DNA from: Candidatus Zhuqueibacterota bacterium
Lineage (GTDB): Bacteria > Zhuqueibacterota > Zhuqueibacteria > Thermofontimicrobiales > Thermofontimicrobiaceae
Direction: 5' to 3'
NCBI GenBank assembly: GCA_049322915.1
Contig: JBMOPW010000020.1
Location: forward strand, 224,001 to 288,000
Length of the DNA stretch: 64,000 nt
The notes below the pieces were generated by a model. That model was not told where the DNA came from and made no database searches. It saw nothing but the letters and a program-made list of their open reading frames with translations. Every line of letters begins with the position of its first letter. The stretch's first letter is position 1. Position numbers and translations under genes: made by a program. Below are positions 43,431 through 61,202 of the stretch, in pieces.

Positions 43431-43614
43431 ATCCGCTCTCTGTTCATGCAACTGAAAATTTATCCCCCCCATCAATTAATACCACATGGGCGACGTCACT
43501 CAGCCAGCGAATTTCCAGATTTTACATTCACCAAAGATGTAGAAATTTTCTCTTGATTTTTATCCAAAATTTTCTACATTGAATTAATTTATTTGAAAGC
43601 ACAAAGGGCGAGTT

Positions 43615-44241
43615 ATGAAAAAGAATGGTGTAATACTGGCTTCGATACTTGCGATGATGATCGCATGCGCTGGTTCAGTGAGCATGTTGCCTGCGCCGCT
43701 GGACTCGAAAAACCTGCTCATAGGCGCGCTCATCTTCGATGTGAATGGCTACAATGATACGTTTGAATCAGTGCGCAAGCAAATCGAAGTTGCCATCGTC
43801 GGCAATGTGATTGAAAATGGCGAGATGAAGAGCTACGGCCAATGGGCGGTCACAGACGAGAATGGCTATTTTTTTTTGGCCAATGTACCGGATGGTGAAT
43901 ATGTGATAAAGGGCTTCAGGATTCACTCCATTGGTGCCGATAATCTAACTATTAGCAATGACTTGATTAATCCAAGGGAAGATTATTACGAGTTGCAGGA
44001 CGAGGATATCATTTATTTGCAGGCTGCCTATTTCGACACACAATCGAACCGGCGAATTGTGAATTTTAAGCATCATGTTTTTACGCTGCATTCCAATGAA
44101 TTTATCAAACATGAGCAATACGATGAATTGCGCGAAGTGAAGCTGTCAACAGGTGAACTTGTCAGTGAACCCCCTGTTCCGCAATATTTTCTCAATAAAT
44201 TTCCCGCGAATCCCTGGGCGCCATTTTTGGAGTTAGAGTAG
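43615..44241 (+). CDS. Hypothetical lipoprotein with a carboxypeptidase-regulatory-like beta-sandwich motif
   Basis: Lipobox IAC; TDENGYFFLANVPDGEYVI. Confidence 0.7.
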   Translation: MKKNGVILASILAMMIACAGSVSMLPAPLDSKNLLIGALIFDVNGYNDTFESVRKQIEVAIVGNVIENGEMKSYGQWAVTDENGYFFLANVPDGEYVIKGFRIHSIGADNLTISNDLINPREDYYELQDEDIIYLQAAYFDTQSNRRIVNFKHHVFTLHSNEFIKHEQYDELREVKLSTGELVSEPPVPQYFLNKFPANPWAPFLELE

Positions 44242-44425
44242 CAGTAATGCAATTCTGTGGGATGTCCGGGTGGGCTTGGAATGATGGTGTGTGCCCGGGA
44301 ATAGTCATGCTACCACTTACCGTATATTTCCACTCCGTGCAATGATTATTATTTTCAAATCATTCCTGAATAAATTTTAATGTGCTGATACATCCGATAA
44401 CCGCTAATGATTGGGAATACTGGCC

Positions 44426-47400
44426 ATGCAAGATGTTACAACCGTGAGATACAGCAATTTTCTGAAAGAGCAATCAGCGTTGAAACGAGTTTCGGAGCAA
44501 CGCAACGCCACTGAGCTTCTGTACCAGAGCGAGAAATTTCAATCAAATACTCCAGTCCAGAGTCTGCCTGGTTGGACGGAATTGCGGCAGAAGCTTTCCG
44601 AGGCATCCGTCATTTTCTTTCCCAATGATGTGCAGCAGCAGACCTACACTGCGGATACCGGCACCCATATTGTCCCGTCCATCTTCAAGCGAATGCTGGT
44701 GAAAATCAAGTTGTCCTTTGTATTTCGTCCCGGCTGTGTCGAAGATTTGAGCGTATTTGTGAAATGGGCGTATGAAAACAAGATTCATTACACCATTCGC
44801 GGCGCAGGCACCTGGCCGTTTGGGGGCTGTGTGCCCATCAACGGGGATGTTGTGGTTGATCTTTCTTACCTTGATTTTATGCACGTGGATGAGCGCGAGG
44901 GGATTTTCACATTCGGGGCCGGCGTCGTTTTCCCCAAGGCCAGGAAATTTTTACAGGAGCGGGAATTCACGTTAAAGCAGGAAATCACCAATCCTGGCAG
45001 CGGCACCATTGCCGGCTGGTTGGCGACCGGCGGCATTGGACTCGGCAGCTACAAATACGGGCATGTCTCCAATTCCGTGCGCGCGCTGCTGGTCATTACC
45101 CCTGCGGGCGAATGCATCACCGTGGATCGGGACGACGCCAACTTCACCAGCTATTTCGGCAGCGAAGGCCAGTTCGGCATTATCGCCGGCGCATCCATGG
45201 AGGTGCGACGGGAATCCTACGTCACCAAGCCGTACGCGTTTTCCTTTACAAAATTCGAAGATGCGGTGCAGTTCATCCACATGCTTGAAAAAGCGCAACT
45301 GAAGCCCACTTCGGTCATTTACTTCAGCGACACCTACATTGCCGAGACGTATAAAATCGAGAAGCGCCACGTCGAAGAGCGACTGAATGAAGCGCTGGAC
45401 AATAACGACCAGACGCGTTTGCGCGAGACGCGCGAAGACCGCGATACCATCGAGGCGATGAAGCAGTACCAGCATGTCGTCGTCATCCATTTTGATGAAA
45501 ACAGCGATTACCAATTCGCTTTGAAGTCGCGCCTGTTTGGCAAGAGCGGCGAATTGCGCCGCGCGAGTCATATCAGCTATTTGCAACTGCCCACTGACCT
45601 GGCGCATATATTCTGGGATCACCGATTTCTGCCGGTGCAGCTTAAAGTCAACGGGCCGACTGTCCTTGTGAGTGAATTCGTGTTGCCGTTGGCGGCGTTT
45701 TCGAATTTTCAAAACACGCTGCAAAAGGTGCTGGCTCGCTTGCTGAATATCGAGTTGAAGTCGGAAGCGCATCTTCTTCAAGACGGCGAAGTGTTGACGC
45801 AAGCCATGTTCCTGGCTGACACGCGGACGTTTCGGCACAAGCTCTATTTTTCGCTAATTCCGCTGATGACGCAGGTCGGCTATTATTTTGGCGCCAGGCC
45901 GTACGGGATCGGTCTGTGGAATTATCCCTCATTGAGGCGGTGGCGAAGCGTGAACCGGGAGAAGGCCGATGCCATGATGGCGTTCAAAAAGGAATCGGAT
46001 CCGCGCGGTCACATCAACCAGGGTAAATTCATCAATCCCCGGCGGCAGACGTTGGCGTTCAAGCTGTTCAAAATTATCACTCCCCGTTTCAACCAATGGT
46101 TCGTCGCCACCTACGATAAACGGATTCAGCAGAAAAAATTCGTCCTCACCTTCCCATTTCAGAAGTTGGTGTGGAATATCACCCGATTCATTTTCCCGCG
46201 AATGGTGCCGCCGGGGTTGAAAGCCGGAGAGCATGAACCCATCGAACGGATGATTTCAGTTTGCGCCGAATGCGACTCGTGCGAACGGGTCTGTCCGACT
46301 TCGGATGTGTTCGGACTTTACGGCCCGGCCACGCCGATCACCCGCCGCCGCACAGCGCAGCGCTTGATTGCCGGAGAGAAAATCAGTCGGAATGAGGCGC
46401 TGGGATTCCTCGCCTGCACCCGCTGCGACAATTGCACCGACATTTGTCCAACCAACATCAACCTCACGCAGGTGTTCGATCTGGTGGAAATGAATCCAAA
46501 GTTCAACGCCCAGTTGAATTTCAGGAACGGTGAAAAGAAGGAGTATATCGATCGGTTCTGGCAGATCATGAAAGAGAGTCCGCTGTACATCGAACATACG
46601 CTGGCCGTTCAGAAAGAAGAGAAATCGCATCTGGCTCACGGGCTGAAAATTCTGTACGACAAAGGATTTGCCTACAGCGAATTGTACATCGATCCGACCA
46701 CCTGTATCCATTGCGGCATGTGCAGCAACGAAAACGCCTGCATGTACGCTGCCAGAGAAAGCCAGCCACGTCAGATTCCTGAACTGCGCCACATCAACTG
46801 CGCGCTGTGCAATGCCTGCGTTAATTTCTGTCCCCAGAACAAAATCATGGAGCGCACCCGGCTGTATTTCGATAAATTGATCCATCATGCCGTTGATCTG
46901 GAAGAGAAACGCTACTGGACCAAACAGCAGGCGCGGGTGCACGATACAACCACGGTGCAGCGGTCCACGCTGCTCACAGAAATGGCCGACCGCTACGTGA
47001 CGGAAGAAATTATCATGGAAATTGATAAAGAGGCGTCCACCGGCAAAATCCCGGTTTCAGGATCGGGTCAGGGCGACCGGCACATGGGCATCGGCTTCGA
47101 CGCCGAGCGGTTCGCTCATTTTCACATCGTGGGGCCGGCGCAAAACCGTCTGCACGAGGGCGATCCGGCAGAGGAACTGGCGGTGATTCTGGGCAAGCGG
47201 GAAGATTTCTGCAAGTTTGACCGGGATGGCAATCTGGTGAATCCCGTGCATGCCAATATCAAATTGATGACGCCGATTTTATACAACGCCATCCCGCTGG
47301 AGAGCAACGGCAATGTGGAACTGGTTCTCATCAAAGTGGCGGAACAGCAGAAAAGCCTTGTGGTGATTCAATTGGAGCGGCTGCTGGAACACCATCAGGA

Positions 47401-50400
47401 AATCCTGAAAAATGGCGGGTATGCGCGCCTGCCCCAGGTGATTGTTCCGAGGGTGGGCAGCGATCTGATCAATCTGCTGACTGTCCACCAAAACACGAGC
47501 CGCGATTTCATCACAGATCTGTGGCGCATGCCGGTGTTCGAGGTGGAATACCATCCGGACATCGAGCAGACCATCAGCTACATCCGCGGTTGCGTCGCCA
47601 GCAGCGAGAAAGTGCGGGCGCTGATCAGCGGGTATCTGGAAATTTCCGAGTACGACCTCATCGGCTCACTGAGTCTGACAGCGGATATCAAAGAGAAAGT
47701 GAACCACTTCCTCGACCAGAAAGTGGATATAGTGCACATCCGCGGGCTGAGAAATAAAGACGAGTACTTTGTAACGTCCCGCGCAGTTCGCGCGCTGCAT
47801 CATTATCTGATGCGAATTGGCCGGCGGCATGAAGTGAGCATCATTGCATCGGGCGGAATACGGCTGGCATCGGACACGCAAAAGACAATTCAGCGCGGGG
47901 CTGAGGCCACGTTGATCGATTTCGCGGCACTGTTGGCGCTGGATCCTTCGACCTATCGCGCAATGATTGAGAATAAATCCACCACGGAAAAATTATTGAG
48001 CCTGGATGTGGATTGGGCAGTGAAAAGGCTGCTCAACCAGGCTGAATCGCGCAAAGTGCAAATCCTTGAAGTGCTGGGCGCTGCCGGGTTCAAAGACCTG
48101 AAAAAGACGGTGGGCGAGGAAGGACGGCTCATCGATTTTCACAAACTGGAGAACAGAATTCAGCGGACGATTTTCGAAAATGAGCAACTCGTGGATGAGT
48201 ATTCGACCTGTAACGAGCAACTCATCAAAAATGAAACCATCCCGGAAACGCAGGTGCGCAGCTACAGCGTCCTGAAGACGAAACTGGCGCCCATGCCGGC
48301 GCCGCACGATTTTTACAATCTCGGCGAAGTGAATCAGGTGCTGTACAAACGCGATTTTGTCTGGCCCGGGGCATTGATCGAATCCATGGGACGTATGGCA
48401 GCCGGGGACATGTCCATGCTCGATTTCAACAACGTGAAAAAGACCGGCCTGCTTGGCGATGGATTCGACGTCATGCGCATTTTGTACAACAAAGACCCGA
48501 TGGATATTCACGAATCTGAATTGAACCAGATCTCCACTTCCTTGCTGCTGGACAAAGGCCTGATCCTCGAAGCGCCGTGGATGTTCGGTGGCAAATCCAT
48601 CGGCTCCATCGGACTGGACACGTGGAAAGCGCACGTCACAGCGTCGCGGGAATTGGGCATTCAGTTCGACACCGGCGAGGGGGGCTATCCCACCAGCTTT
48701 TTCCTGAATTCGAAAGGCGAGCCGCTGTTCTTCACGGAGAATGAAATTCAACTCATCAAATCCTATTTCGAATCGGGCAGTGATTACACCATCGAGCAGA
48801 TACAAAAGACGCTGGCAGAGAAGAAGATCACCGAAGAAAGCCATCCGGAATTGTACAAAAAACTGAAGCAATTTCCCTCGCTCAAGCCCTTCCGGTTTCT
48901 CGTCATCGTCGATGAACAGGACCAGCCGTTCGTTTCGACTGAATTGAAAACCGGGCTGTTTGGCGTCACCAAGACTACGATTCAGAAAGCGCGGCGCGTG
49001 GTGATTGCCTACAGTCAGGGCGCCAAGATGGGCATCGGCGGACACATCCTTGCGCAGAAGGTGAATAAACTGGTTTCGTACATGCGGGGGGTGGAAGGCA
49101 TCGAATACACCCACGCCGAGAAAGTGGAGCAGTTGTACCAGAAATTACAAAAAATCGCCTCGAAAAATGACCATCCGCTCCATGAACTGGCTGTTGCCAA
49201 TCTGGACATTTTCAACGCTATGGAAGACCAGCGGACTGCAACCGAAGCGTTCAAAAATGCGCTGTGGCAGATTCAGGAATATGCCTATAATCTCCATGCC
49301 CGCAATGCGATTGATCCCATCGAATTCAAAAACATCCTGCAATTGTGCGAGGAGATCATCGACTACTCTTACAGCAGCATCATTTCGCCGTTCCCGTTTC
49401 ACAATTGTTATTCCATTGAAGATGTGAAAGCGTTCATCGATGTCGTGCGAATGATCAATCCGGAGGCGGTCATTGCCATCAAAGTGTCGCCGTCCATTGA
49501 TATCGAATTCATTGCCACCGGACTGGGACGCATTGCGCGCGACAATACCGACGAAATTTTAGCCGCCAGATTCAACAAAACTCAGGCCGGATCGGACCCG
49601 TTGTCCGTCGAGATGGCCGAATATACCCGGAAATACGGAATGAAAATTGAAATCTGGCTGGATGGACCGCGCGGCGGCACCGGCGCGTCGCCCAATATCA
49701 TCAAAGGTCAAATGGGCATGCATCTGGAATACGCCATTCCGCTGATTCACTATCGGCTTGTTAAAGACGGGCTGCGGAATTATGTCAAATTTATAGTCTC
49801 CGGCGGGATACGAACCTTTGAAGATGTGATCAAGGCTGTCGCCCTGGGCGCTGATGGTGTGGTCTGGGGAACGGCTCCGCTGGTGGCCATTGGCTGCGAC
49901 CGAAACCGGAACTGTCACGACGGCTGTTCGCGCGGCATTGCCACGAGCAATTTGAAGCTGCAACAACTGCGCGATGTGGCGGTTAACACGCAGCAAATCA
50001 TCAACGCGTTCACCATGATTCAGATGCAATGTATCCGCGCCATTGCCGCGCTGGGATTTTCCGACATCCGCGAGCTGCGCGGCCGGTTCGACAAAATTCA
50101 TTGGCTGGGTCTCAAAGAACGGGTGGATCACCGCTATCGGGTGCGCGCTGAAGTGATTAAAGAGATTGAGAAGGACGAGCAGCTATTCGAGCAGCGCATG
50201 GCTCGCGCGACTGGCCAGAGCAATTGCGGCGTGGCGGCCATTAACGGCACGACGGCAATTCCCGGCTATATACTCGACCAGACGCTGCAATCGATGCGGA
50301 ACCGCGGCATGGATGGCGTTGGCATTGCCAAAACGCTCTGTTTCCCGGACCATCCGAATGAATACGCCTATCGCATCCTGGTGAAGGGTCGGCTGCACCG

Positions 50401-53077
50401 GGATATTGAATTTGAGCTGAGAAAATCGCAGGACGGAAAGAATGAGGCGATGGATGAAAATGAACTGCGGACGCTCGCCCGCGAAAGAACCGTCGCCCTG
50501 CGAATCAGCCTGATGCGCAAAATCAAGTCGATTTATCTCGATCCCTATTTCGATTATTTCGGCCAGGACGATGTGACACGGTGTCGCGAGCCGTACAAAG
50601 TCAACGAGCAGAGCGCAGAGAGGGACTATCGGGAGTTTGGAAATGCCAATACTGATCCCGGCGATGTCTTTCGTTTCTTCGTACGGGTGAAACCGGCGGC
50701 GCTGTACCATTTCATCGAAAATGAACTGCTCCGCGGCGGCAAGCCGCGATTGCTGGAGCACCTGTTCCCGGAGATAACGCCGAATAATTACCGGCAGAAC
50801 GAGACTTTTCTGAACAAGGCAGAGGATTTGTTCATCCTGCAGCACTCGCACAATGTGACGCGGATTCTCTATGTGTCGTCGGTGCTGCCTGATGAATTGG
50901 AAAAGTTCGCCGGCAAGAAGATCGGTCTGAAGCGCATTTCCGAAGCCGATGAGGAATACATTCTGGCGGATGTCCGCGATGAGGATTGCTCCGATTATCT
51001 TAAACTGCTGCGTGATTTCATGCTAGCCCATCCGTTTGAACATCACAAGCATCGCTACGGGGTGCGTAATCATAAAATCGCGGCGGTGATGTCGTGCGGG
51101 AAGAATTTCGCCGTGTGGAAGACAGCCGGCCGCGAAATACCTTGGCAGACGCCGGACGCTCCCAACAATATCATTCACGTGCGATTGGCCACCGGCTCGG
51201 TGGTCGAGCAGATGAATTCGCACCCGTTCGCCAAACTGCACACCGCGCTGACTCACAACGGCGAGACCACCAATTACGAGGCGCTGAAGCAGCGCGTGGA
51301 GCAATTCAATCTATCGCCATTGGCCAGCACCGATACGGAGGTGGCTTCGTTGAAATTTCATCTCACCGCCGATGAATGGGAATACCCGGACTGGGCGTTG
51401 TTCGAAAGTTTCTCGCCTACCACCGGCGATGATTTGCAATTGGTGGACGAAAAGATCAGGCCGCAGTTGGAGCAGGTGCAGCGTGTGGAATTCACCAGTT
51501 CCCCGGATGGCCCGTATCAATACCTGTGCCTGCGCCACAATCCCTACACCCGGGTGACCGAGCGCGTGGATTTGAAAGACCCGGCGGACCTGCGTCCCAA
51601 TGTGACCGCATTCTGGAGCGATCAATCCAACGGCCAACGGCGCGTCTTCAGCATCATCGCTTCGGAAGAACAGGCCATCAACACCATGCTGCGACTGCTG
51701 GATAAAGAGGGCATCATTCAGGGGAGCGTTGCAGATTTGACCTTTGTGAACGCCGGCATGATCAGCCGCTATTGGTACGACGAAGCCAATCGGATCACGG
51801 ATTTCCGTTTCGTCGACCGCTACGGTCGCGCCATTCAACTGGAAAATAGCGGCATGCATCACAGTGTGCGCCAGGGAAAACCGTTGCCGACGCAGGGAAA
51901 AGACACCCATGCTGGCTGGCAGAATCGCTATCAGCAGTTTTTCAGGGACAATCTGGCTGCCATGACGTTCGATGAGTTCCGCTGGCTGCTGCATCAGCAG
52001 TCCAACGAAAACGCGGACAATGCCGCCTTTGCGCGCACCCTGGAAATTTTCACCTGGCTTCGCGATTATCTTCGCACGCTGAATCCCGGAGAAAAGGCGC
52101 AGAGTTCGCTCATCGACATCACGCAGTATTACATCGACGCGCTGCTGGATAGGGCGAAGGAATCGGTTTACAGCAATTATGTCTGGTGCAGCCGGGAGTC
52201 GGCATTGCAATTCAACACGCGGGCTGGCGAGGGCCAGACACTGGTGATCAATGCCGGGAAATTTCTGCCGGAGGGCACAGACCCGGCAGTCTCGCTGACC
52301 GCATTTCTGTCAAAAGCCCACCGCCTGGGCTGGCGCAAATTCATCCTGTACAATACAACAGGTCAGCGGCTCATTTCAACGGCGGCGCTGCACGGAGGTG
52401 ATTCGGACGATGTGGTCATGGATGTGTACGGCTCTGTCGGCGAATACTTTGGCGCGTTCATGCAGGGCGGCATTCTGCGATTGCACGGCAACGCACAGAA
52501 CTTCGCCGCCATGTGCATGCATCACGGCGAATTGTACATTTTTGGCAATGCCGGCAAAGTGTGCGGCTACGCATCCAAAGGCGGCAAGGTCGTTGTTCTC
52601 GGCAATGTCGTGGATCGCTGCTGGACCAACTCGGTGAACGATTCGCGCTGTCAGGATCTGGACGTGATGATTTTGGGTTCCGCGACAAAGTACGCCGGCG
52701 AGTCTCTCATGGGCGGTAAATTTTTCTTTGCCGGACTTCATTTCGATGTGAAAGGCAATTTATGCTTCAACGAGCGGCCCTACCTGGGCACGAAAATGCT
52801 CGGCGGCGCTTCACGCGGCGATTTCATTTTCTTCGATCCTGAAAATCGGCTCATCCACGCGCAGTACGTCCACGGCGCAGAGAAGCAGTTCACCATTGAG
52901 GAATGGCAGGCGTTCAAAGAAAAAGCCAAATCGGTCTTTCGTCTGTCCAATATCCCCATCCACGAGGCCGACGGCGTCGAATCCATTCAGGTGGGTGATC
53001 GCCGATACGACCTCATCCCGGCGCACTTCAAATTTATCGTTCCCAGAGGCGGACTCCGCGGCTATGAGTCCCATTGA
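44426..53077 (+). CDS. Giant multidomain flavo-iron-sulfur protein: FAD-binding (GlcD/D-LDH-like) + 4Fe-4S domains + two glutamate-synthase FMN barrels + class II glutamine amidotransferase + GXGXG domain
   Basis: RGAGT..GG, TIAGWLATGGIG and GSEGQFGII; four CxxCxxC motifs; DTGEGG, SQGAKMGIGGH, SPFPFHNCYSIED, DGPRGGTGA, SGGIR and CDRNRNCHDGC; CGVAAI, RGMDGVG, HVRLAT, SHPF, HNGE and TDTEV; GSVGEYFGAFMQGG. Start at ATG 44426 or TTG 44411. Confidence 0.9.
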   Translation: MQDVTTVRYSNFLKEQSALKRVSEQRNATELLYQSEKFQSNTPVQSLPGWTELRQKLSEASVIFFPNDVQQQTYTADTGTHIVPSIFKRMLVKIKLSFVFRPGCVEDLSVFVKWAYENKIHYTIRGAGTWPFGGCVPINGDVVVDLSYLDFMHVDEREGIFTFGAGVVFPKARKFLQEREFTLKQEITNPGSGTIAGWLATGGIGLGSYKYGHVSNSVRALLVITPAGECITVDRDDANFTSYFGSEGQFGIIAGASMEVRRESYVTKPYAFSFTKFEDAVQFIHMLEKAQLKPTSVIYFSDTYIAETYKIEKRHVEERLNEALDNNDQTRLRETREDRDTIEAMKQYQHVVVIHFDENSDYQFALKSRLFGKSGELRRASHISYLQLPTDLAHIFWDHRFLPVQLKVNGPTVLVSEFVLPLAAFSNFQNTLQKVLARLLNIELKSEAHLLQDGEVLTQAMFLADTRTFRHKLYFSLIPLMTQVGYYFGARPYGIGLWNYPSLRRWRSVNREKADAMMAFKKESDPRGHINQGKFINPRRQTLAFKLFKIITPRFNQWFVATYDKRIQQKKFVLTFPFQKLVWNITRFIFPRMVPPGLKAGEHEPIERMISVCAECDSCERVCPTSDVFGLYGPATPITRRRTAQRLIAGEKISRNEALGFLACTRCDNCTDICPTNINLTQVFDLVEMNPKFNAQLNFRNGEKKEYIDRFWQIMKESPLYIEHTLAVQKEEKSHLAHGLKILYDKGFAYSELYIDPTTCIHCGMCSNENACMYAARESQPRQIPELRHINCALCNACVNFCPQNKIMERTRLYFDKLIHHAVDLEEKRYWTKQQARVHDTTTVQRSTLLTEMADRYVTEEIIMEIDKEASTGKIPVSGSGQGDRHMGIGFDAERFAHFHIVGPAQNRLHEGDPAEELAVILGKREDFCKFDRDGNLVNPVHANIKLMTPILYNAIPLESNGNVELVLIKVAEQQKSLVVIQLERLLEHHQEILKNGGYARLPQVIVPRVGSDLINLLTVHQNTSRDFITDLWRMPVFEVEYHPDIEQTISYIRGCVASSEKVRALISGYLEISEYDLIGSLSLTADIKEKVNHFLDQKVDIVHIRGLRNKDEYFVTSRAVRALHHYLMRIGRRHEVSIIASGGIRLASDTQKTIQRGAEATLIDFAALLALDPSTYRAMIENKSTTEKLLSLDVDWAVKRLLNQAESRKVQILEVLGAAGFKDLKKTVGEEGRLIDFHKLENRIQRTIFENEQLVDEYSTCNEQLIKNETIPETQVRSYSVLKTKLAPMPAPHDFYNLGEVNQVLYKRDFVWPGALIESMGRMAAGDMSMLDFNNVKKTGLLGDGFDVMRILYNKDPMDIHESELNQISTSLLLDKGLILEAPWMFGGKSIGSIGLDTWKAHVTASRELGIQFDTGEGGYPTSFFLNSKGEPLFFTENEIQLIKSYFESGSDYTIEQIQKTLAEKKITEESHPELYKKLKQFPSLKPFRFLVIVDEQDQPFVSTELKTGLFGVTKTTIQKARRVVIAYSQGAKMGIGGHILAQKVNKLVSYMRGVEGIEYTHAEKVEQLYQKLQKIASKNDHPLHELAVANLDIFNAMEDQRTATEAFKNALWQIQEYAYNLHARNAIDPIEFKNILQLCEEIIDYSYSSIISPFPFHNCYSIEDVKAFIDVVRMINPEAVIAIKVSPSIDIEFIATGLGRIARDNTDEILAARFNKTQAGSDPLSVEMAEYTRKYGMKIEIWLDGPRGGTGASPNIIKGQMGMHLEYAIPLIHYRLVKDGLRNYVKFIVSGGIRTFEDVIKAVALGADGVVWGTAPLVAIGCDRNRNCHDGCSRGIATSNLKLQQLRDVAVNTQQIINAFTMIQMQCIRAIAALGFSDIRELRGRFDKIHWLGLKERVDHRYRVRAEVIKEIEKDEQLFEQRMARATGQSNCGVAAINGTTAIPGYILDQTLQSMRNRGMDGVGIAKTLCFPDHPNEYAYRILVKGRLHRDIEFELRKSQDGKNEAMDENELRTLARERTVALRISLMRKIKSIYLDPYFDYFGQDDVTRCREPYKVNEQSAERDYREFGNANTDPGDVFRFFVRVKPAALYHFIENELLRGGKPRLLEHLFPEITPNNYRQNETFLNKAEDLFILQHSHNVTRILYVSSVLPDELEKFAGKKIGLKRISEADEEYILADVRDEDCSDYLKLLRDFMLAHPFEHHKHRYGVRNHKIAAVMSCGKNFAVWKTAGREIPWQTPDAPNNIIHVRLATGSVVEQMNSHPFAKLHTALTHNGETTNYEALKQRVEQFNLSPLASTDTEVASLKFHLTADEWEYPDWALFESFSPTTGDDLQLVDEKIRPQLEQVQRVEFTSSPDGPYQYLCLRHNPYTRVTERVDLKDPADLRPNVTAFWSDQSNGQRRVFSIIASEEQAINTMLRLLDKEGIIQGSVADLTFVNAGMISRYWYDEANRITDFRFVDRYGRAIQLENSGMHHSVRQGKPLPTQGKDTHAGWQNRYQQFFRDNLAAMTFDEFRWLLHQQSNENADNAAFARTLEIFTWLRDYLRTLNPGEKAQSSLIDITQYYIDALLDRAKESVYSNYVWCSRESALQFNTRAGEGQTLVINAGKFLPEGTDPAVSLTAFLSKAHRLGWRKFILYNTTGQRLISTAALHGGDSDDVVMDVYGSVGEYFGAFMQGGILRLHGNAQNFAAMCMHHGELYIFGNAGKVCGYASKGGKVVVLGNVVDRCWTNSVNDSRCQDLDVMILGSATKYAGESLMGGKFFFAGLHFDVKGNLCFNERPYLGTKMLGGASRGDFIFFDPENRLIHAQYVHGAEKQFTIEEWQAFKEKAKSVFRLSNIPIHEADGVESIQVGDRRYDLIPAHFKFIVPRGGLRGYESH

Positions 53078-53147
53078 GATGAACTAAATGCACCCTGCGG
53101 GGTTAAATTATCAGATTAAAATCGACAGACCTCGCAGGTGCCCATTT

Positions 53148-54593
53148 ATGAAAATGACTATCCCGTCAAATATTTCTTTTCTCAAGTACAGCATTCGCAC
53201 GCGACTGATCCTCCTTTTTTTCCTTTCCACCATCATGATTTTTGCTTCCGCCGGCTATTACCTGAACTGGCAGATTCGCGCGACGCTGGACCATGCGCTC
53301 AGTCAAAATGTCGAGGCGATTGCCTCCACGTTTGCCGGGCAAATCGACCCGGGGCTGATCGTTCACATCCAGCCCGGCGACGAAAATTCCCGCACCTATC
53401 GGCATGTGCTGCAGCAGTTCGATCAATTCAAGCGGGTGAAAGGCATCTCCCGGATCTACCTGTTTTTAGCCGATGGCGCCAGTCTTGTCGATTCCGATTC
53501 AACCGTGCGAATTGGCCAGAGATACGCGCAACTGAATTACAGTCAGCAGGAAATGCAGGAGGTATTCTCCGGGCGCACGGCCAGTTCGGTTCTCTTTGCC
53601 GGCGTTGGTGGGCGATTGTACAAGTCCGGGTTCGCTCCCATCTGGCACGGCGACAGAGTACTGGCCGGAATCGCCGTCGAAGCCAGCGCGGAAATGCTGG
53701 AGGCGGTCGACGCCATTCGGAACGATCTGCTGATTCTGGGAGTGGCTGTTGCCATCGGCGCCATTTTCGTCGGCGCTATTTTTGCAAACCGCATCACCAC
53801 GCCGCTGAAGAAATTGCAGCACGCTTCGGAGAAAATAAGTCAGGGCTATTTCTTTCAGCCAATTCCTGATTGCGGCCGGGACGAGGTTGGATTTCTCAGC
53901 AGCACCATGGAACAGATGCGCCAGAATATTTTGATTCGGGATAAGCGCCAGCAGGCCATGCTCGCCGGCGTTGCCCATGAAATTCGGAATCCGCTGGGCG
54001 GCATTGAACTCTGCGCCGGGCTGCTGACCAATGACATCGAAAATCACGGATTGAAAAAATACGCCCAGAAAATCCTCGTGGAAGTGCAGCATCTCAAGTC
54101 CATCATTCAGGGATTTCTGGATTACGCCCGACCCAATCCGGCGGCAAAGCAGTGGACCGACATCCGAGCCGTCTGGGACGAAGTGCAATTTTTGCTGGCC
54201 GGCGAAATGAATGCGGTGACGGTGAGTTTCACGCGCGCGCGCGATGCGGCAACCCTGTTCGTCGATCCCCTGCATCTCAAACAGATATTTTTGAACCTGC
54301 TGAAAAATTCACTGATAGCGGTTGGAACCGATGGAACGATTTTTGTTGAAATACACCGGGCCAACGACGACGTCGAGATCATTTTTTCTGATACCGGCCC
54401 GGGAATACCGGCCGAATTGCAAAGCCAGATTTTCGAGCCATTTTTCACGACGCGCGAAAAGGGCACCGGCCTGGGACTGGCTGTGGTGAAAAATCTCGTG
54501 GAGGAAAATGGGGGCGTGATTCGCTATCAGGAAGGCGAAGGGGGAGGAGCTTGTTTTGTCATCACGTTTCCAATTGAGCTGATGAGAAGATGA
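53148..54593 (+). CDS. Membrane sensor histidine kinase (HAMP-HisKA-HATPase)
   Basis: AGVAHEIRNPLG, NLLKNS, DTGPGI and FEPFFTTREKGTGLGL; two TM segments. Start uncertain (53088, 53148 or 53154). Confidence 0.93.
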   Translation: MKMTIPSNISFLKYSIRTRLILLFFLSTIMIFASAGYYLNWQIRATLDHALSQNVEAIASTFAGQIDPGLIVHIQPGDENSRTYRHVLQQFDQFKRVKGISRIYLFLADGASLVDSDSTVRIGQRYAQLNYSQQEMQEVFSGRTASSVLFAGVGGRLYKSGFAPIWHGDRVLAGIAVEASAEMLEAVDAIRNDLLILGVAVAIGAIFVGAIFANRITTPLKKLQHASEKISQGYFFQPIPDCGRDEVGFLSSTMEQMRQNILIRDKRQQAMLAGVAHEIRNPLGGIELCAGLLTNDIENHGLKKYAQKILVEVQHLKSIIQGFLDYARPNPAAKQWTDIRAVWDEVQFLLAGEMNAVTVSFTRARDAATLFVDPLHLKQIFLNLLKNSLIAVGTDGTIFVEIHRANDDVEIIFSDTGPGIPAELQSQIFEPFFTTREKGTGLGLAVVKNLVEENGGVIRYQEGEGGGACFVITFPIELMRR

Positions 54594-54598
54594 ATGGG

Positions 54599-54937
54599 AA
54601 ATTCCAATTACAAAAAGACAAAAAACAAATATAAATCAATGACCAAATTCGAATAGAAAAATTTATTTTGATTCTCGATACAGGACACTTTTTATATAAT
54701 TGCCTGTTTGATTGAATTGTCATGCCCGAATGGTTCTATCGGGCATCCATTTGAAAATATTTTTCGAGATTCACGCTAAAAACATGCGATTGAAATGAGT
54801 GCCTGTGGTACGGGACTGACAGAACCACCAAACATAATTGAAAAAGTGTCCGGTAGATTGTTATGTTTCAAAGTAAGTGGTTGTGAAATTGGAAATTCGT
54901 ATTTATTTGTAAATTGAATTTTGCTTTTTTGGAATTT
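54599..54937. repeat. Nested palindromic intergenic element
   Basis: Outer inverted heptamer-periodic arms (AAATTCCAA.../...TTGGAATTT), middle GGACACTTTTT/AAAAAGTGTCC and inner hairpin ATGCCCGA-N9-TCGGGCAT (54722-54746). Confidence 0.55.
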
Positions 54938-54999
54938 AGAAGAGTAACAAATTATTTTCGTTGCGCAGTTTTAATGATTTCATCAATGCGGAGTAAAAG

Positions 55000-56382
55000 G
55001 TGCCCGAAATATTGATCGTCGAAGATAACGCCACCATGCGCGAGGCCATGGTTGCCATTGTGGAGCGAATGGGCTATTCCTGCGATCAGGCAGAAAACGG
55101 TCGCGTGGCCCTGGAGCGGTTGGCCGCTAACGCGTATGAGTTTGTCGTGAGCGACTATAAAATGGAAGGCAAAAACGGGCTGGAAATTTTGAACCATATC
55201 AAGGGTACCACCCCGGCGACGGAGGTTCTCATCATCACTGCCTACGGGACAATTGAATTGGCCGTGGACGTGATGAAAGCCGGGGCAGCCGATTTCATCA
55301 CCAAGCCGTTTTCCCACGATGAATTCAGGATGAAGGTGGAGCGCATTTTTCAGCGAATCCAGGAACGAAAAGAGCTGTCCCGCATTTCCGATGAAAATGC
55401 CTACCTGCGTCAGGAACTTGACGAGCAGTTCAATTACGGCGATATCATCGGACAGTCCGACGCCATGCGCAAAGTGTACCAGACCATCGACAAAGTGGCT
55501 CAGACAGATTCGTCGGTGCTGATTTATGGCGAGAGTGGGACCGGGAAGGAATTGGTCGCCCGCGCCATTCACAAAGCCAGCCCGCGGAAGAATAAACCGT
55601 TTGTACGGGTCAATTGCGGCGCGCTGGCCGAGACGTTGCTGGAATCGGAATTGTTCGGTCACGAGCGGGGCGCGTTCTCCGGCGCCATCAAGAGGAAAAA
55701 AGGCCGGTTCGAACTGGCCGATGGCGGCAGTATTTTTCTCGATGAAATCGGGGACATCTCGGCCAACATGCAGTTGAAATTGCTGCGTGTGCTGCAAGAG
55801 AAGGAGTTTGAACGGGTCGGCAGCGAAGAGACAATTCAGGTGGATGTTCGTATTCTCGCTGCGACAAATAAAAACCTTTCGGACCTGGTTCAGCAGGGGA
55901 CGTTCCGCGAAGATCTGTATTACCGGCTGCATATCATTCCCATTTATCTCCCGGCGTTGCGCGAGCGGACGAGCGACATCCCCATCCTGATTGATTTTTT
56001 CCTCGCCAGATTCAGGTCAGAATTCAAGCGACAGCATATCAGCATCAGCCGGGATGCTGTTGAAAAACTTGTGAGCTACCGCTGGCCCGGCAATGTGCGG
56101 GAACTGGAAAACGTCATCGAGCGCGCATTTGTCCTCTGCGATGGCGACGCCATTCGGAGCAGCGATTTGCCGATTCTCACTTCGGAAGAGTCGCACAAAT
56201 TGCCGGCGGATCTGCTGGATCGGTTCCAGCTCAATCTGAACGACACGCTGTACGCGGTTGAAAAGCACCTGCTGGAACGGGCGATGCAGCAGAGCGACGG
56301 GAATAAATCCCAGGCCGCCAAAATTTTAGGCATTAAAACGAATCTGCTGTATTATAAATTAGAAAAATTTGGAATGATTTGA
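55000..56382 (+). CDS. Sigma-54-dependent response regulator (receiver-AAA+-Fis HTH)
   Basis: ILIVED, GESGTGKE, GAFSGA, FLDEIG, FREDLYYRL, WPGNVRELEN and GNKSQAAKILGI. Confidence 0.95.
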   Translation: MPEILIVEDNATMREAMVAIVERMGYSCDQAENGRVALERLAANAYEFVVSDYKMEGKNGLEILNHIKGTTPATEVLIITAYGTIELAVDVMKAGAADFITKPFSHDEFRMKVERIFQRIQERKELSRISDENAYLRQELDEQFNYGDIIGQSDAMRKVYQTIDKVAQTDSSVLIYGESGTGKELVARAIHKASPRKNKPFVRVNCGALAETLLESELFGHERGAFSGAIKRKKGRFELADGGSIFLDEIGDISANMQLKLLRVLQEKEFERVGSEETIQVDVRILAATNKNLSDLVQQGTFREDLYYRLHIIPIYLPALRERTSDIPILIDFFLARFRSEFKRQHISISRDAVEKLVSYRWPGNVRELENVIERAFVLCDGDAIRSSDLPILTSEESHKLPADLLDRFQLNLNDTLYAVEKHLLERAMQQSDGNKSQAAKILGIKTNLLYYKLEKFGMI

Positions 56383-58638: not shown

Positions 58639-58654
58639 TGGCATACAAGTTGCA
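58639..58654 (+). promoter_or_regulatory. Sigma-54 (-24/-12) promoter
   Basis: TGGCATACAAGTTGCA = GG-N10-GC, about 80 bp upstream of ATG 58734. Confidence 0.82.
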
Positions 58655-58733
58655 TTTAACGAACAACAACAGTCCCAGTGGGATGTGTTGAAGAAAAGCA
58701 ATGAATCATTCGCTTCGAAAAGTGAGGTTCACT

Positions 58734-61202
58734 ATGAAAACAAAACCCTGGCAGACGGTAATCCTCTGTGGGATCGTTCTTTTTAGCTTCACCTCGTTGA
58801 GCGTGTCACAGATTCCGGTCACAATTCCTGATGATGTGGAGACCGAGTTTGGGACGTACCATCCAATTCCGGTCCAATTCACCCCGCAAGTTCCTGAGTT
58901 TCAGCTCGAGTCTGATTTCAGCAATGTCACCAATTATAATTCTCTCGGCTGGTGGTTCAACGCGACCGACATGAGTCTGCTGCTGGACAATCATTTTACG
59001 GTGAAAAAAAGCCAGTACAAGCAACTTTACGAAGTGTACAATGCCTGCACCTGGGACGGAACCCCGATATTCGTCACAGCCGATGCGGTGCTGCATACCT
59101 ATCATGTGCTGTTCGATTATTTTCTCTCCGAAATTGAGGCTCGGAAATTCGTGGCTGCGTTGAGCGAATTGACCGATGCGATGATCCTCAACATTGAGGC
59201 CGATTACCCGCAGCTCATGACAGCGCAGGCCCGGGATGCGGCTTTGTCCAACCTGGCCTATTTCTATGTCGCCCGAAAATTGCTTTCCCCTGATGATGCG
59301 GCGCCGGCGGAGATCGCAGATGTGGTGGATGCGGAATTAGCCCTCATCGATGCGCACGAAGGCTTTTCTTTCTCCCCGATTTTTGGGGAATTCTCCAAAC
59401 TGGATTATAGCCAATTCAAACCGCGCGGGCATTACACGAAAAGCGAAACGCTTCAGGTTTATTTCAAAACCATGATGTGGTACGGCTGGACTATTTTCAC
59501 GATGGAACCTCAACTGTTCGGCGAAATTGCAGCGCGGCATTCACTCCAGGCGCTGCTGATGGTTCAGGATATCTATACGCTGCAGGGAGCAGAAGCGTCG
59601 CTTGAAACGCTGTGGGACTCCATTTACGAACCGACTGTGTTTTTCGTGGGCAGAACCGATGATCCGAACATCCGCGATTATCGCATCCTTGGGGAGCAGA
59701 TTTATGGCGATAATTTTCTGACCCTTTCCGGGGATAGCCTGGCCAATGCCCACCTGCTGGATGCGTTCATGGCGCAGGCGCAGACGCTGCCTGAGCCAAA
59801 AATACCCAACTGGATTCATGGCGCTTTTATCACGTACAAGGGATTCCGCTTCATGGGTCAGCGATTCATCCCTGACTCGTACTGGATGGCGCATCTCATC
59901 GATCCGTATGTTAGGTCCCGCTATTTCCCCAAAGGACTCGACGTACTGGCAATTTTAGGTTCGGCCCGCGCGTGCGCCTTGATGGATTCAGTCTACCACG
60001 AAACGAGTCCTGGCTACGCTGAAAAAATCGCCGAGTTTCGAGCCGAACTGATGGCGCTGAATCCGGAACAGTGGGCGCAGAACCTGTATTGGAACTGGCT
60101 CTATTGTCTGCTGCCGTTGCTCGGAGAGAAAGGCGCCGGCTACCCATTGTTCATGCAGACGCTGGCCTGGGCCGATAAAGAGTTGCTCACCGCTCTGGCG
60201 TCCTGGGCAGAACTCAGGCACGATACCATCCTCTATGCAAAACAAAGTATGACTCCCTGCGGTACAACGCCCGGTACACCAAAAAGCTACGTCGAACCCA
60301 ATCCACTTCTTTATGCGCGGCTGGCCAGTCTGGTCCAGTTCACAAAGGATGGATTGAGTTCAAGAAATCTTCTCCTGGATGGCTTCGACGTCAGACTGGA
60401 TTCATTTGAGAGGCTGCTCTTATTTTTGAAGGACATTTCGATCAAAGAATTGGAAAGCATACCGCTGACAGACACAGATTATGAAAATATTTTCTGCTTC
60501 GGATCGGTGATGCAAGACCTGGTATCTGTGACGTTAGACCCGAATAATCCCTTCAACAGGGACGTCGACGACATGGCCGTCGTGGCCGATGTGCATACCG
60601 ATTCCAACAGCGAACAATGCCTGGAAGAAGGCGTGGGCTATCCGCTGGAAATTTATGTCATCGTCAACGAAGGCGGGGACATTCGGTTGACGCGCGGAGC
60701 GATTTTTTCTTACTACGAATTCACTCAGCCCATCGCCGATCGATTGACCGATGAAAAATGGCGACAGATGCTCGTCAGCGATGCTCCGCCCAAAATGCCG
60801 GAGTGGGTATCCGGCTTTGTGAACGTGAATGAGGAGCAGCCCGAGTACTCCGAATTTTCCCCGGGTAACCTGTTCAATCATCTGTTTCTAAGCGTGGAGC
60901 GCATCCATCGAGAAGTGAAGCCGAAGACCACTCAACTCCTGACGAATTATCCAAATCCGTTCAACCCCCGGACGACGATTCAATATCAATTGGATAAAGC
61001 AGCGTTCGTCCGCCTGGAAATCTACAACATCAACGGGCATAGGATTCGCACATTGGTCAATGAAGTGCAGACGTCGGGGGTGTACGCGGTGCGCTGGGAT
61101 GGACGGGATGAATCCGGGAGAGCCGTCGCCAGCGGCGTCTATTTCTGCGCGATGAAATCCGGCGACTATGCCAAAGCTAATAAACTGTTTCTATTGAGAT
61201 AA
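58734..61202 (+). CDS. DUF3160-family protein with a C-terminal FlgD-like/sorting domain
   Basis: PIFVTADAVLHTYH, DYSQFKPRGHYT, YFKTMMWYG, FRFMGQRFIPDS, LASWAELRHDTILYAKQ, YVEP, VADVHTD, SYYEF and RLTDEKW; tail NYPNPFNP...WDGRDESGRAVASGVY. Confidence 0.87.
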   Translation: MKTKPWQTVILCGIVLFSFTSLSVSQIPVTIPDDVETEFGTYHPIPVQFTPQVPEFQLESDFSNVTNYNSLGWWFNATDMSLLLDNHFTVKKSQYKQLYEVYNACTWDGTPIFVTADAVLHTYHVLFDYFLSEIEARKFVAALSELTDAMILNIEADYPQLMTAQARDAALSNLAYFYVARKLLSPDDAAPAEIADVVDAELALIDAHEGFSFSPIFGEFSKLDYSQFKPRGHYTKSETLQVYFKTMMWYGWTIFTMEPQLFGEIAARHSLQALLMVQDIYTLQGAEASLETLWDSIYEPTVFFVGRTDDPNIRDYRILGEQIYGDNFLTLSGDSLANAHLLDAFMAQAQTLPEPKIPNWIHGAFITYKGFRFMGQRFIPDSYWMAHLIDPYVRSRYFPKGLDVLAILGSARACALMDSVYHETSPGYAEKIAEFRAELMALNPEQWAQNLYWNWLYCLLPLLGEKGAGYPLFMQTLAWADKELLTALASWAELRHDTILYAKQSMTPCGTTPGTPKSYVEPNPLLYARLASLVQFTKDGLSSRNLLLDGFDVRLDSFERLLLFLKDISIKELESIPLTDTDYENIFCFGSVMQDLVSVTLDPNNPFNRDVDDMAVVADVHTDSNSEQCLEEGVGYPLEIYVIVNEGGDIRLTRGAIFSYYEFTQPIADRLTDEKWRQMLVSDAPPKMPEWVSGFVNVNEEQPEYSEFSPGNLFNHLFLSVERIHREVKPKTTQLLTNYPNPFNPRTTIQYQLDKAAFVRLEIYNINGHRIRTLVNEVQTSGVYAVRWDGRDESGRAVASGVYFCAMKSGDYAKANKLFLLR

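Follow-up and report, generated by a model that had tools for sequence, protein, structure and literature searches.

A single gene in this bacterium is predicted to encode all the subunits of an undescribed glutamate synthase, fused end to end in one giant chain. Because the subunits share that chain, the catalytic cysteine of the glutaminase part lies about 1,938 residues inside it. In class II (Ntn) amidotransferases this cysteine is residue 1 of the mature chain and its alpha-amino group is free. Since a residue that normally comes first is here internal, activity probably depends on the protein cleaving itself into two chains. We favour, with some reserve, autoproteolysis in cis between Asn1938 and Cys1939, which would yield a 220-kDa redox chain and a 108-kDa glutaminase chain. 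A broader and clearly more tentative proposal is that the protein may represent a new glutamate synthase class, one supplied with electrons straight from a 2-hydroxy acid (D-lactate-like) by an FAD/Fe-S wire of its own, the fused form cutting itself about 1,938 residues in.

Nitrogen enters biomass mainly through glutamate synthase. Characterised members use NADH, NADPH or ferredoxin, according to the available text of PMC3448663, and the form described here, fused or as an operon, brings its own FAD-linked dehydrogenase module. A nucleophile deep in a very large precursor also confronts an Ntn amidotransferase with an exposure problem for which descriptions have so far come from other Ntn families alone. 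If the broader proposal holds, this would be the first two-chain, internally processed Ntn amidotransferase, and a natural system in which leader removal by glutamate synthases can be read from a gel. As the cut would leave chains of 220 and 108 kDa, processing could be traced by simple electrophoresis, making the leader-removal mechanism of the enzyme class directly testable.

The giant frame and its modules

The window, the whole 64,000-nucleotide stretch analysed, contains one uninterrupted plus-strand frame at 44411..53077, which gives 2888 aa from a TTG start at 44411. The database copy of the same protein (P0152) begins at ATG 44426, has 2883 aa and shows no other difference (Table 1). 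Residue numbers are counted from the TTG start; Cys1939 is Cys1934 from the ATG. Uninterrupted frames of 2877-2893 aa recur in six relatives of other genera and families, the full-length frame is also present in 13 named MAG or chromosome records, and 215 database proteins of 1588-5054 aa carry the same uninterrupted frame. Full-text searches of the literature outside subscription journals returned no description of the fused architecture, and the ESM Atlas held generic GATase_6 clusters only (0.88-0.91), whose members bear generic names. A quick unrooted tree of 54 rows divided the relatives of the giant protein into three groups; independent origins of the fusion were considered and set aside, the same tree being compatible with a single origin as well. 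One database protein, P0027, is a permuted singleton with the GATase first.

Table 1. Features of the giant gene; coordinates refer to the window and residue numbers to the TTG start.
Feature	Coordinates	Strand	Residues and remarks
Giant gene	44426..53077	+	ATG 44426 start, 2883 aa; predicted mass 328.6 kDa
FAD_binding_4 core	44717..45124	+	103-238; Pfam 9.1e-26, 90.6 bits
First 2x[4Fe-4S] ferredoxin domain	46256..46459	+	616-683; CxxCxxCxxxC at 618 and 669
Second ferredoxin-type dicluster domain	46688..46843	+	760-811; CxxCxxCxxxC at 797
Central-domain-like second barrel	46976..48184	+	about 856-1258; weak Glu_synthase/Glu_syn_central matches
Glu_synthase FMN barrel with insertions	48461..50107	+	about 1351-1899; PF01645 8.4e-63
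GltS-type Fe-S motif C1829-x5-C1835-x3-C1839	49895-49927	+	aligned with the GltS cluster region
Linker, putative former leader (propeptide) of the GATase-GXGXG subunit	50108..50224	+	1900-1938; ends S1937-N1938
Met1930 (ATG) within the linker	50198-50200	+	9 codons before Cys
Cys1939 codon (TGC)	50225-50227	+	predicted N-terminal nucleophile; proposed scissile bond Asn1938-Cys1939
Class II (Ntn) glutamine amidotransferase domain	50225..51730	+	about 1939-2440; long insertions; GATase_6
Glutamine-site residues R2258; N2283-G2284; D2308	51182-51184; 51257-51262; 51332-51334	+	
Middle region, then GXGXG beta-helix domain	51731..53074	+	Pfam core 2661-2772 (52391-52726)

The FAD_binding_4 core sits in a GlcD/LctD-like FAD-linked oxidase module of about residues 1-560. 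Its best solved relative is the lactate dehydrogenase LctD (7qh2_C, 1.2e-16), with alkyl-DHAP synthase and D-2-hydroxyglutarate dehydrogenase also near; NCBIfam matches to GlcD and YdiJ are weak and fall far under their cut-offs. The FAD-oxidase_C cap reaches 15.6 bits in the window protein, under the cut-off, and is clear in P0006, P0010 and the corresponding subunit of locus L072. We propose this module as the electron-input site. Further along the chain, the central-like barrel matches by alignment the separate Fer4 plus central-like subunit of unfused operons; it aligns to an 846-aa protein of genome G021, and to gene 2 of loci L072 and L061 (giant residues 765-1258). The FMN barrel scores 213 bits against PF01645 (cut-off 20.4) and matches GltS chains (1ea0_A, 1llw_A and others) at 4e-27 to 3e-23, its C1829/C1835/C1839 triad aligning to the cysteine region of 1llw and 2vdc.

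The glutaminase domain opens with CGVAAI and is a sequence-profile match to PF13522 (31.1-33.5 bits, cut-off 27). The motifs listed in a preliminary description of this DNA (RGMDGVG, HVRLAT, SHPF, HNGE and TDTEV) are all present in the translation, and the long insertions it mentioned are borne out by the Cys-to-HNG distance, which is 323-353 residues in 16 mapped giant loci with an [S/T]N junction and 273-275 in a 2525-aa class, against 213-234 in stand-alone relatives. The core aligns to residues 67-128 of GlmS and 47-134 of PurF, the stretches that carry the glutamine site. N2283-G2284 is the Asn-Gly oxyanion pair, D2308 the Asp that binds the alpha-amino group of the substrate, and R2258 the equivalent of GlmS R73. 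R2258, T2261, F2273, N2283, G2284 and D2308 are conserved in 124/124 homologues, and the same six residues are invariant in a 37-row alignment that includes stand-alone forms. The GXGXG part matches PF01493 at 35.9 bits when submitted as a piece (cut-off 32.5) and at 30.7 bits, under the cut-off, within the whole protein; the profile is also matched by FwdC and GltS beta-helix chains.

The junction, the unfused operons and the genomic setting

The preliminary description had placed a cysteine codon at 50225, near residue 1939, within MARATGQSN-CGVAAI, and both position and motif proved correct. It had also named loss of this cysteine in homologues as a ground for abandoning its interpretation; the residue is kept in 120/120 mappable long homologues and shares an alignment column with the cysteine of stand-alone subunits. 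Because it is so consistently kept and the frame recurs in six relatives, the burial of a glutaminase cysteine is far beyond chance, and we predict that Cys1939 is the glutaminase nucleophile. The linker before it is charged, as had been noted (D, E, K or R at 17 of the 39 residues, 1900-1938). The suggested alignment of the residues preceding the cysteine brought out a conserved [S/T]-[N/D] pair behind a variable stretch: among the long homologues position -1 is N in 78 and D in 42, and position -2 is S or T in 119/120. Entropy is about 3 bits, with indels, at -30 to -5 versus 0.8-0.9 bits at -2/-1, in an alignment whose rows had been picked by the junction motif. A class of 3000-aa giants has Ala at -1 with D at -2, and stand-alone forms have Gly at -1, which is why the N/D at -1 may reflect clade history rather than mechanism.

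Other genomes encode the same modules as separate genes, in the order FAD-oxidase plus Fer4, Fer4 plus central-like barrel, Fer4 plus FMN barrel, and GATase plus GXGXG, which is the order within the giant. Loci L056, L061 and L072 carry them as three to four genes; at L093 the FAD-oxidase and Fer4 homologues upstream of the FMN gene were found by tblastn only, and L093 itself was discarded as a fusion, being a high-GC open frame. The gene boundaries fall in the linker region. In G021 the 846-aa protein stops at giant residue 1899, and residue 2 of the 885-aa protein encoded by the next gene aligns to giant residue 1905, its own cysteine falling on Cys1939 and the linker aligning to its residues 2-34. 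Similarly, giant residue 1911 is where gene 3 of L072 ends, and the alignment of gene 4 of L061 starts at 1912. By this computed homology, the 39-residue linker appears to be the old leader of a free GATase-GXGXG subunit. The stand-alone loci that reach the cysteine read EGG-CGV in 51/51 cases, after a leader of roughly 10-100 residues (mostly 30-40), and one or more FMN genes lie directly upstream of the free GATase plus GXGXG gene in 45/55. A leader directly before CG[VI]GF is also found in 11 of 12 canonical GltB genes of relatives. Because the leader of the free subunits carries conserved features, it may serve some purpose other than removal.

A gene split exactly at the Asn-Cys bond was not found among close homologues. 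The shorter database proteins that are candidate splits begin at contig ends or internal Mets, and four loci considered as natural splits were rejected, two for frameshifts well upstream of the junction (L030, L040) and two for sequence containing N (L037, L049).

The genomic setting adds a link to glutamine. In one Thermodesulfobacteriota-labelled class a glutamine synthetase gene (glnA) lies directly upstream on the same strand at 3/3 and 16/16 examined loci, that is 19/19, which are kin and not independent; such a gene is also the first of the unfused L072 operon. In the genome of the window (G000) it is not beside the giant gene but on contig C1. The giant frame is the only strong PF01645 match in that genome, PF00310 has no match anywhere in it, and the giant gene is the only glutamate-synthase-like gene found there. 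The giant enzyme is not simply the sole GOGAT everywhere, because G018, G019, G020 and G044 have it together with canonical GltB. A distribution complementary to that of canonical GltB was considered and holds only in part: family f1 shows no canonical GltB match over the cut-off in 13 genomes, G018-G020 have both genes, and both are missing from many genomes. Whether fused or encoded by an operon, the giant type is widespread among uncultured anaerobes; in one Thermodesulfobacteriota-labelled class, 36 of the 61 genomes sampled gave a match, and further records with it bear the labels Calditrichota, KSB1, Gemmatimonadetes, Krumholzibacteria and Brocadiae. As for regulation, no sigma-54 consensus is present in 44242-44425 (34 matches window-wide versus 37 expected), and Rfam gave no family match in the window and none at E<=1 in 43500-44600. 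For a downstream histidine kinase and sigma-54 regulator we claim no link, as their conservation is limited to L025, a locus of the same genus, and in part to L029.

Maturation and competing explanations

We suggest that the gene gives a single-chain precursor that would have arisen by end-to-end fusion of four once-separate subunits. The first would have resembled FAD-linked 2-hydroxyacid dehydrogenases and carried a 2x[4Fe-4S] domain, the second and third would have paired a ferredoxin with a central-like barrel and with an FMN/Fe-S barrel, respectively, and the last would have joined a class II (Ntn) glutaminase to a GXGXG beta-helix. After folding, the thiol of Cys1939 would attack the carbonyl of Asn1938; the N-to-S acyl shift and subsequent hydrolysis would leave Cys1939 with a free alpha-amino group, the 220-kDa and 108-kDa chains remaining associated. 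The mature enzyme would then hydrolyse glutamine and hand the ammonia over to 2-oxoglutarate at the FMN site, where the imine would be reduced by electrons running from FAD through the Fe-S clusters to FMN. The electron source is probably a 2-hydroxy acid such as D-lactate, a reading suggested by one PDB ranking (LctD) and one neighbouring gene, a lactate permease fragment directly upstream of the giant gene at L044.

Among the three options raised in the preliminary description, namely cleavage at the Asn-Cys bond, re-initiation nearby and use of free ammonia, cleavage is the best supported, because linker and leader can be aligned, the motif at the junction is kept behind a variable linker, separate genes meet at this boundary and class II enzymes offer a precedent in cis; the cut itself we infer. 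The word polyprotein, used there as well, is apt only if taken to mean an enzyme that cleaves itself into two chains. The available text of PMC9140057 has the residues before the cysteine of class II amidotransferases removed autocatalytically and gives the known leaders as "a few amino acids", and that of PMC3207474 has Ntn precursors, including family C44, cleaved in cis. Our literature searches found no precedent in the class II amidotransferase family for a pro-part with folded domains.

There is some room for a chain that is never cut, in which the internal cysteine would work through another general base, or the glutaminase would serve as a structural or ammonia-tunnel module of an enzyme using free ammonia. 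PurF without its cysteine loses the use of glutamine yet still takes ammonia, as stated in the available part of PMC3261824. The conserved leader features of the free subunits would fit a retained segment, and the genome has an NAD-type GDH and ammonia may be plentiful in the habitat. We nevertheless regard an uncut chain as unlikely, and free ammonia as disfavoured, given that the cysteine (120/120) and all the glutamine-binding residues (124/124) are kept over deep divergence and that glnA stands directly upstream at all 19 examined loci of one class. To our knowledge, there is no class II amidotransferase that is active with the amino group of its cysteine blocked.

Less probable again is that the same bond is cut by another chemistry or agent. 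The Asn/Asp side chain might cyclise, as happens in asparagine peptide lyases and where inteins end at their C-terminal junction, or a separate protease might act. Cutting of this kind would suit the two main giant classes, whose members have Asn or Asp at -1 in 120/120 cases, and Asn-dependent self-cleavage is an established catalytic type in the available text of PMC3207474. However, with Ala at -1 in the 3000-aa class and Gly-Gly in the free subunits, no single side-chain chemistry fits the family. Furthermore, Pfam reported no intein/Hint or protease domain in the giant protein, and no conserved protease neighbour was seen at the loci examined.

Separate production of the GATase-GXGXG part from Met1930, followed by loss of a 9-residue leader, can be considered very improbable. 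The in-frame ATG at 50198, which the preliminary description had pointed to, would give a leader of ordinary length, but just 16 of the 114 distinct homologues have Met in this column, P0003 and P0004 have none within 12 residues of the cysteine, and the 20 bases ahead of the ATG show no purine-rich ribosome-binding motif. In addition, 18 distinct orthologous genes have no excess of synonymous conservation near the junction (0.52-0.69 versus a mean of 0.60). Re-initiation was rejected on the Met column, the synonymous sites and the P0003/P0004 evidence. Finally, an assembly or sequencing artefact joining two genes, a natural suspicion for a draft genome of 45 contigs, has a negligible chance given the same frame in the six relatives, the 13 full-length records and the 215 database proteins.

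Comparison with known systems

Canonical GltB and Fd-GltS (Azospirillum brasilense 1ea0/2vdc, Synechocystis 1llw/1ofd, Bacillus subtilis 7mfm) have the same four catalytic modules as the giant: a class II glutaminase, a central-type barrel, an FMN barrel whose Fe-S site has the pattern Cys-x5-Cys-x3/4-Cys, and a GXGXG beta-helix. A leader before the cysteine is common to both, as the 11 of 12 GltB genes of relatives illustrate. The module order differs, being central-FMN-GATase-GXGXG in the giant and GATase-central-FMN-GXGXG in canonical GltB, and therefore the cysteine of the giant lies about 1,938 residues inside instead of behind the usual short leader. The glutaminase domain of the giant also matches PF13522 instead of PF00310, and electrons would enter through an FAD-linked oxidase and two ferredoxin domains, whereas GltB systems rely on GltD or ferredoxin. 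Closer in layout are the split "archaeal-type" glutamate synthases, including Ignicoccus Igni408/407 (PMC2614490), which combine a GATase plus GXGXG protein with an FMN subunit and a ferredoxin-bearing central-like barrel, in the gene order of the giant. There the glutaminase is separate with a short leader (EGG-CGV, 51/51), whereas the giant is one chain with [S/T][N/D]-CGVAA.

For the proposed maturation, the nearest parallels come from glycosylasparaginase (T2), gamma-glutamyltransferase (T3), penicillin G acylase (S45) and acid ceramidase (C89), in which an internal nucleophile, cleavage in cis and two chains that stay together follow the logic we propose for the giant (available parts of PMC3207474 and PMC9140057). 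These are other Ntn families; class II amidotransferases (C44) appear in the available text of PMC9140057 with short leaders only. Within C44, B. subtilis PurF exposes its cysteine by leader removal, as the giant would (available parts of PMC3261824 and PMC3207474), but its leader is a short peptide, whereas some 1,938 residues and four cofactor-binding modules precede the cysteine of the giant.

On the electron-input side, the predicted F420-dependent glutamate synthases of methanogens likewise join an archaeal-type GltS core to a non-standard electron-input flavoprotein; as presented in the available text of PMC3448663, they differ from the giant in having an FrhB/FdhB-like donor module, separate subunits and no internal cysteine. 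The N-terminal module of the giant matches the FAD_binding_4 domain of LctD, GlcD, D-2-hydroxyglutarate dehydrogenase and YdiJ-type fusions with Fe-S domains, but unlike these proteins, the giant has its FAD module fused to the core of a predicted glutamate synthase.

Architecture of the giant protein and its downstream neighbours

The giant gene forms one open reading frame, encoding 2888 aa when counted from its TTG, the numbering used here as in the preliminary description; the database copy P0152 (2883 aa) begins at ATG 44426 and is otherwise identical. Translation around Cys1939 reads ...EQRMARATGQSN-CGVAAI..., with RGMDGVG, HVRLAT, SHPF, HNGE and TDTEV downstream, and the buried cysteine codon, preceding residues and GATase motifs noted earlier are exact to the base. 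In addition to the Pfam domains listed in the table, CxxCxxCxxxC motifs occur at residues 618, 669 and 797, and a C-x5-C-x3-C at residue 1829 aligns with the Fe-S cysteine region of solved glutamate synthases. The FMN part matches GltS large chains (4e-27), and the nearest solved relative of the N-terminal part is the lactate dehydrogenase subunit LctD (7qh2_C, 1.2e-16), followed by alkyl-DHAP synthase and D-2-hydroxyglutarate dehydrogenase. Residues 67-128 of GlmS and 47-134 of PurF align with the glutaminase core, a stretch containing the glutamine-site Arg, Asn-Gly and Asp. The giant is a glutamate synthase whose modules are permuted and fully fused; it brings its own FAD-linked module for electron input, and its Ntn nucleophile lies about 1,938 residues inside the precursor. 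Full-text literature searches found no published description of this architecture.

Features of the giant gene, its product and the downstream region
Feature	Window position	Strand	Residues	Basis
Giant gene	44411-53077	+	1-2888	ORF list
FAD_binding_4, with weak FAD-oxidase_C cap			103-238	Pfam
4Fe-4S dicluster domain, first			616-683	Pfam
4Fe-4S dicluster domain, second			760-811	Pfam
Second Glu_synthase/central-like barrel, weak			about 1125-1226	Pfam
Glu_synthase FMN barrel, four stretches			1748-1883 (best stretch)	Pfam
Met1930 (ATG)	50198-50200	+	1930	sequence
Cys1939 (TGC)	50225-50227	+	1939	sequence
GATase_6			2252-2311	Pfam
GXGXG			2661-2772	Pfam
Kinase/regulator pair	53088-56382	+		
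Sigma-54 activator	55000-56382			
Candidate sigma-54 site	58639-58654	+		
DUF3160/T9SS-tail gene	58701-61202			
Serpin gene	61228-62454			

Directly after the giant gene lie a HAMP-HisKA histidine kinase and a sigma-54-dependent response regulator (NtrB/NtrC-like), a pair kept in the same-genus locus L025, resembled by one about 4 kb further downstream in L029, and absent from the other giant loci. Further along, TGGCATACAAGTTGCA has one mismatch to the sigma-54 promoter consensus and stands 47 bases ahead of the DUF3160/T9SS-tail gene, which the serpin gene follows; consensus matches with up to two mismatches are no commoner than chance in the whole window.

Unfused forms and the origin of the linker

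Proteins of about 880 aa with only GATase and GXGXG are widespread. Species-representative genomes gave 588 relatives, and the best 80 of these include 55 such loci, from both bacteria and archaea (labels include Bathyarchaeia, Thermoproteota, Heimdallarchaeota, Chloroflexota and Planctomycetota). The cysteine was reached in 51 of the 55, the other four ending at contig ends before it, and all 51 read EGG-CGV after a leader of mostly about 30-40 residues, an upper bound because lengths run from the frame's first Met. In 45 loci the central-like and FMN gene(s) immediately precede the GATase-GXGXG gene in the same orientation; of the other ten, seven have upstream DNA that is missing or too short. 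In G021, a genome of the window's own class, an 846-aa central+FMN protein, collinear with giant residues 856-1899 and ending there, stands 56 bases ahead of an 885-aa GATase-GXGXG protein whose residue 2 aligns at giant residue 1905 and whose cysteine falls on Cys1939. Four stand-alone loci also carry FAD-oxidase (same strand) and Fer4 homologues upstream: L056, L061 and L072, where ORFs and Pfam domains give the giant's module order, and L093, checked by tblastn only. For example, L072 runs glnA, FAD_binding_4+FAD-oxidase_C+Fer4 (622 aa), Fer4+central-like (470 aa), Fer4+Glu_synthase (502 aa) and GATase+GXGXG (844 aa). In that order, the four subunit genes after glnA correspond in the giant to residues 73-726, 765-1258, about 1351-1911 and 1912 onward. 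Together, the stand-alone leaders, the split pair and the unfused operons show that the giant joins the subunits of a three- or four-part enzyme end to end, with residues 1900-1938 as the former leader of the glutaminase subunit.

In 13 of the 55 operons (L054, L058, L063, L064, L066, L067, L073, L074, L080, L085, L091, L094 and L103), the FMN subunit genes are preceded, usually immediately, by a co-oriented MTHFR-like gene (PF02219, confirmed by Pfam in the eight loci scanned). A MetV-like DUF5981 gene just precedes it in L058, L074, L094 and L103 and occurs without it in L104, and an ETF-alpha gene takes the corresponding place in L068 and L071; the electron-input partner of the glutamate-synthase core thus seems exchangeable.

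Distribution, conservation and metabolic context

The giant has a match in 22 of 41 related genomes, with uninterrupted frames of 2885 (G001), 2890 (G005), 2893 (G010), 2890 (G018), 2877 (G016) and 2884 aa (G019), and one of 3031 aa at 32% identity in G033. Relatives number 619 at E<=0.001 in the representative library, and a word-indexed search gave 215 proteins of 1588-5054 aa, none annotated beyond 'glutamate synthase-related' or 'FAD-binding' protein, with Calditrichota/Calditrichaceae, KSB1, Gemmatimonadetes, Krumholzibacteria, Brocadiae and Syntrophaceae among the source names. In a quick, unrooted tree the two main size classes, about 2880 and 2525 aa, group together (support 100), the 3000-aa class sits with the permuted singleton P0027 (86), and the stand-alone forms make one group (100), a topology with which a single origin of the giant fusion would be compatible. 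P0027 (3152 aa, from one ENA contig of 60,697 nt) is a circular permutation, with a 78-residue leader ending TEGG-CGV, then GATase-GXGXG, FAD_binding_4/FAD-oxidase_C and Glu_synthase; a search for a second protein with this order found none, and P0027 may therefore be a rare form or a chimeric assembly.

Three relatives (L011, which is G008:C45:1-9000; G011:C433; G013:C151/C95) yielded no full-length giant gene and instead several 200-565-nt copies of its catalytic core (window 50993-51310, HVRLAT..HPF..HNGE), about 82-87% identical among themselves and 74-81% to the window, spaced about 1.3-2 kb between unrelated small genes (Fic/DOC, AAA_14+DUF4143). Every copy has small TCCGCC..GGCGGA palindromes, which the giant gene lacks. 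These copies resemble either repeated pieces of a decayed gene or an array of cassettes, and many short 'proteins' of the representative library (P0020, P0023, P0026, P0033, P0035) may be of the same kind.

Cys1939 was mapped by BLAST onto 126 other proteins longer than 1500 aa, and all 120 that could be mapped have a cysteine there, preceded by Asn (78) or Asp (42) at -1 and by Ser/Thr at -2 in 119. Among the remaining six, P0010 and P0106 (3000-aa class) read ..DA-CGVVSF at 1896 and 1991, P0027 has its cysteine at residue 79, and P0034, P0048 and P0110 match the giant only outside this region. R2258, T2261, F2273, N2283, G2284 and D2308 are kept in all 124 long homologues with a BLAST alignment and are invariant in a 37-row alignment (A1) that includes stand-alone forms. 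When 114 distinct junctions were aligned with MAFFT, with rows picked by junction motif so that -2/-1 are constrained by that selection, positions +1 to +5 (CGVAA) proved invariant and -30 to -5 variable (about 3 bits of entropy) with indels.

In the window's genome (96% complete), no match was found to PF00310, the canonical GltB glutaminase, and the only strong PF01645 match is the giant ORF (two other hits at 35 and 23 bits); the genome also encodes a single glutamine synthetase, a single large NAD-type GDH and several GltD-like proteins. A separate co-directional cluster (L012, G000:C14:643000-657000) contains an NAD-type glutamate dehydrogenase of 952 aa, two ORFs (490 and 584 aa) that match no Pfam family, a 525-aa protein matching Glu_synthase in part only (47.8 bits) and a 929-aa NuoF+GltD-like fusion. 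In one class, 36 of 61 genomes sampled gave a match (34 of giant type), and a glutamine synthetase gene lies directly upstream of the giant gene in 19 of 19 loci there, which are relatives of one another rather than independent cases. These are L041, L043 and L046, with both genes on one strand, and all 16 further genomes whose upstream DNA was fetched, with the same arrangement and with enzymes 88-92% (15) or 39% (one) identical to that of L041. PF00310 was searched for and not found in G041-G043 and G045; G044 has both a match and the giant gene. By context and composition, the giant is a glutamate synthase, and its coexistence with canonical GltB in G018, G019 and G020 means that it is not the only one everywhere; many of the window's relatives have neither.

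An L-lactate permease fragment (PF02652, 5e-29; L044:3-686, a KSB1-labelled MAG) lies directly upstream of a giant gene on the same strand; the sole lactate permease of the window's genome is on a different contig, C7. The LctD-like module and this one neighbouring fragment suggest that the electron donor may be a 2-hydroxy acid, which is thermodynamically reasonable from standard potentials because pyruvate/lactate, at about -190 mV, lies below 2-oxoglutarate+NH4+/glutamate.

Proposed maturation at the buried cysteine

Class II amidotransferases are Ntn enzymes, grouped in MEROPS family C44. PMC9140057 describes autocatalytic loss of the residues ahead of the cysteine in class II enzymes. PMC3207474 describes cleavage in cis for Ntn precursors, C44 included, and PMC3261824 reports that PurF requires the cysteine for glutamine and that ammonia still serves without it. 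For the giant, the preliminary description had proposed cleavage before the cysteine, re-initiation at Met1930 or use of free ammonia, and the first is the best supported. The fusion retained both the leader and the full glutaminase site. We infer most simply that the intramolecular reaction of class II enzymes would cut the chain at Asn1938-Cys1939, yielding a redox part of 220.3 kDa and a GATase-GXGXG part of 108.4 kDa and recreating the subunit boundary of unfused operons. A variable, indel-prone tether ending in conserved [S/T][N/D] fits a segment that would show the scissile bond to the cysteine and then leave the glutamine pocket. A natural split exactly at this bond was looked for among close homologues and not found.

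Every clade has an acidic or amide residue at one of the three positions ahead of the cysteine (N/D at -1; D at -2 in the 3000-aa class and canonical GltB; E at -3 in free subunits), a pattern that we note without claiming a mechanism. Asn/Asp cyclisation or a separate protease could also make the cut, although this does not account for every clade. An uncut enzyme using ammonia is disfavoured by the completely conserved glutaminase site and the glnA linkage. Internal initiation is rejected, since Met occupies the column of Met1930 in only 16 of the 114 junctions and synonymous sites near the junction show no constraint in 18 orthologues. Recurrence of the giant frame in many independent assemblies excludes an assembly artefact.

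Canonical gltB genes encode a leader directly before the cysteine in 11 of 12 relatives (L013-L023), ten of the 11 ending ..HD[S/G/A/N]-CGVGF. Nine read GLY[DNR][PS]xx[ED]HD[S/G/A/N] directly before CGVGF; that of L015 reads GGLYDPRFDHDG, and L017 differs (..FERGN-CGIGF). These conserved leaders suggest that the residues before the cysteine matter for processing in textbook GltB too.
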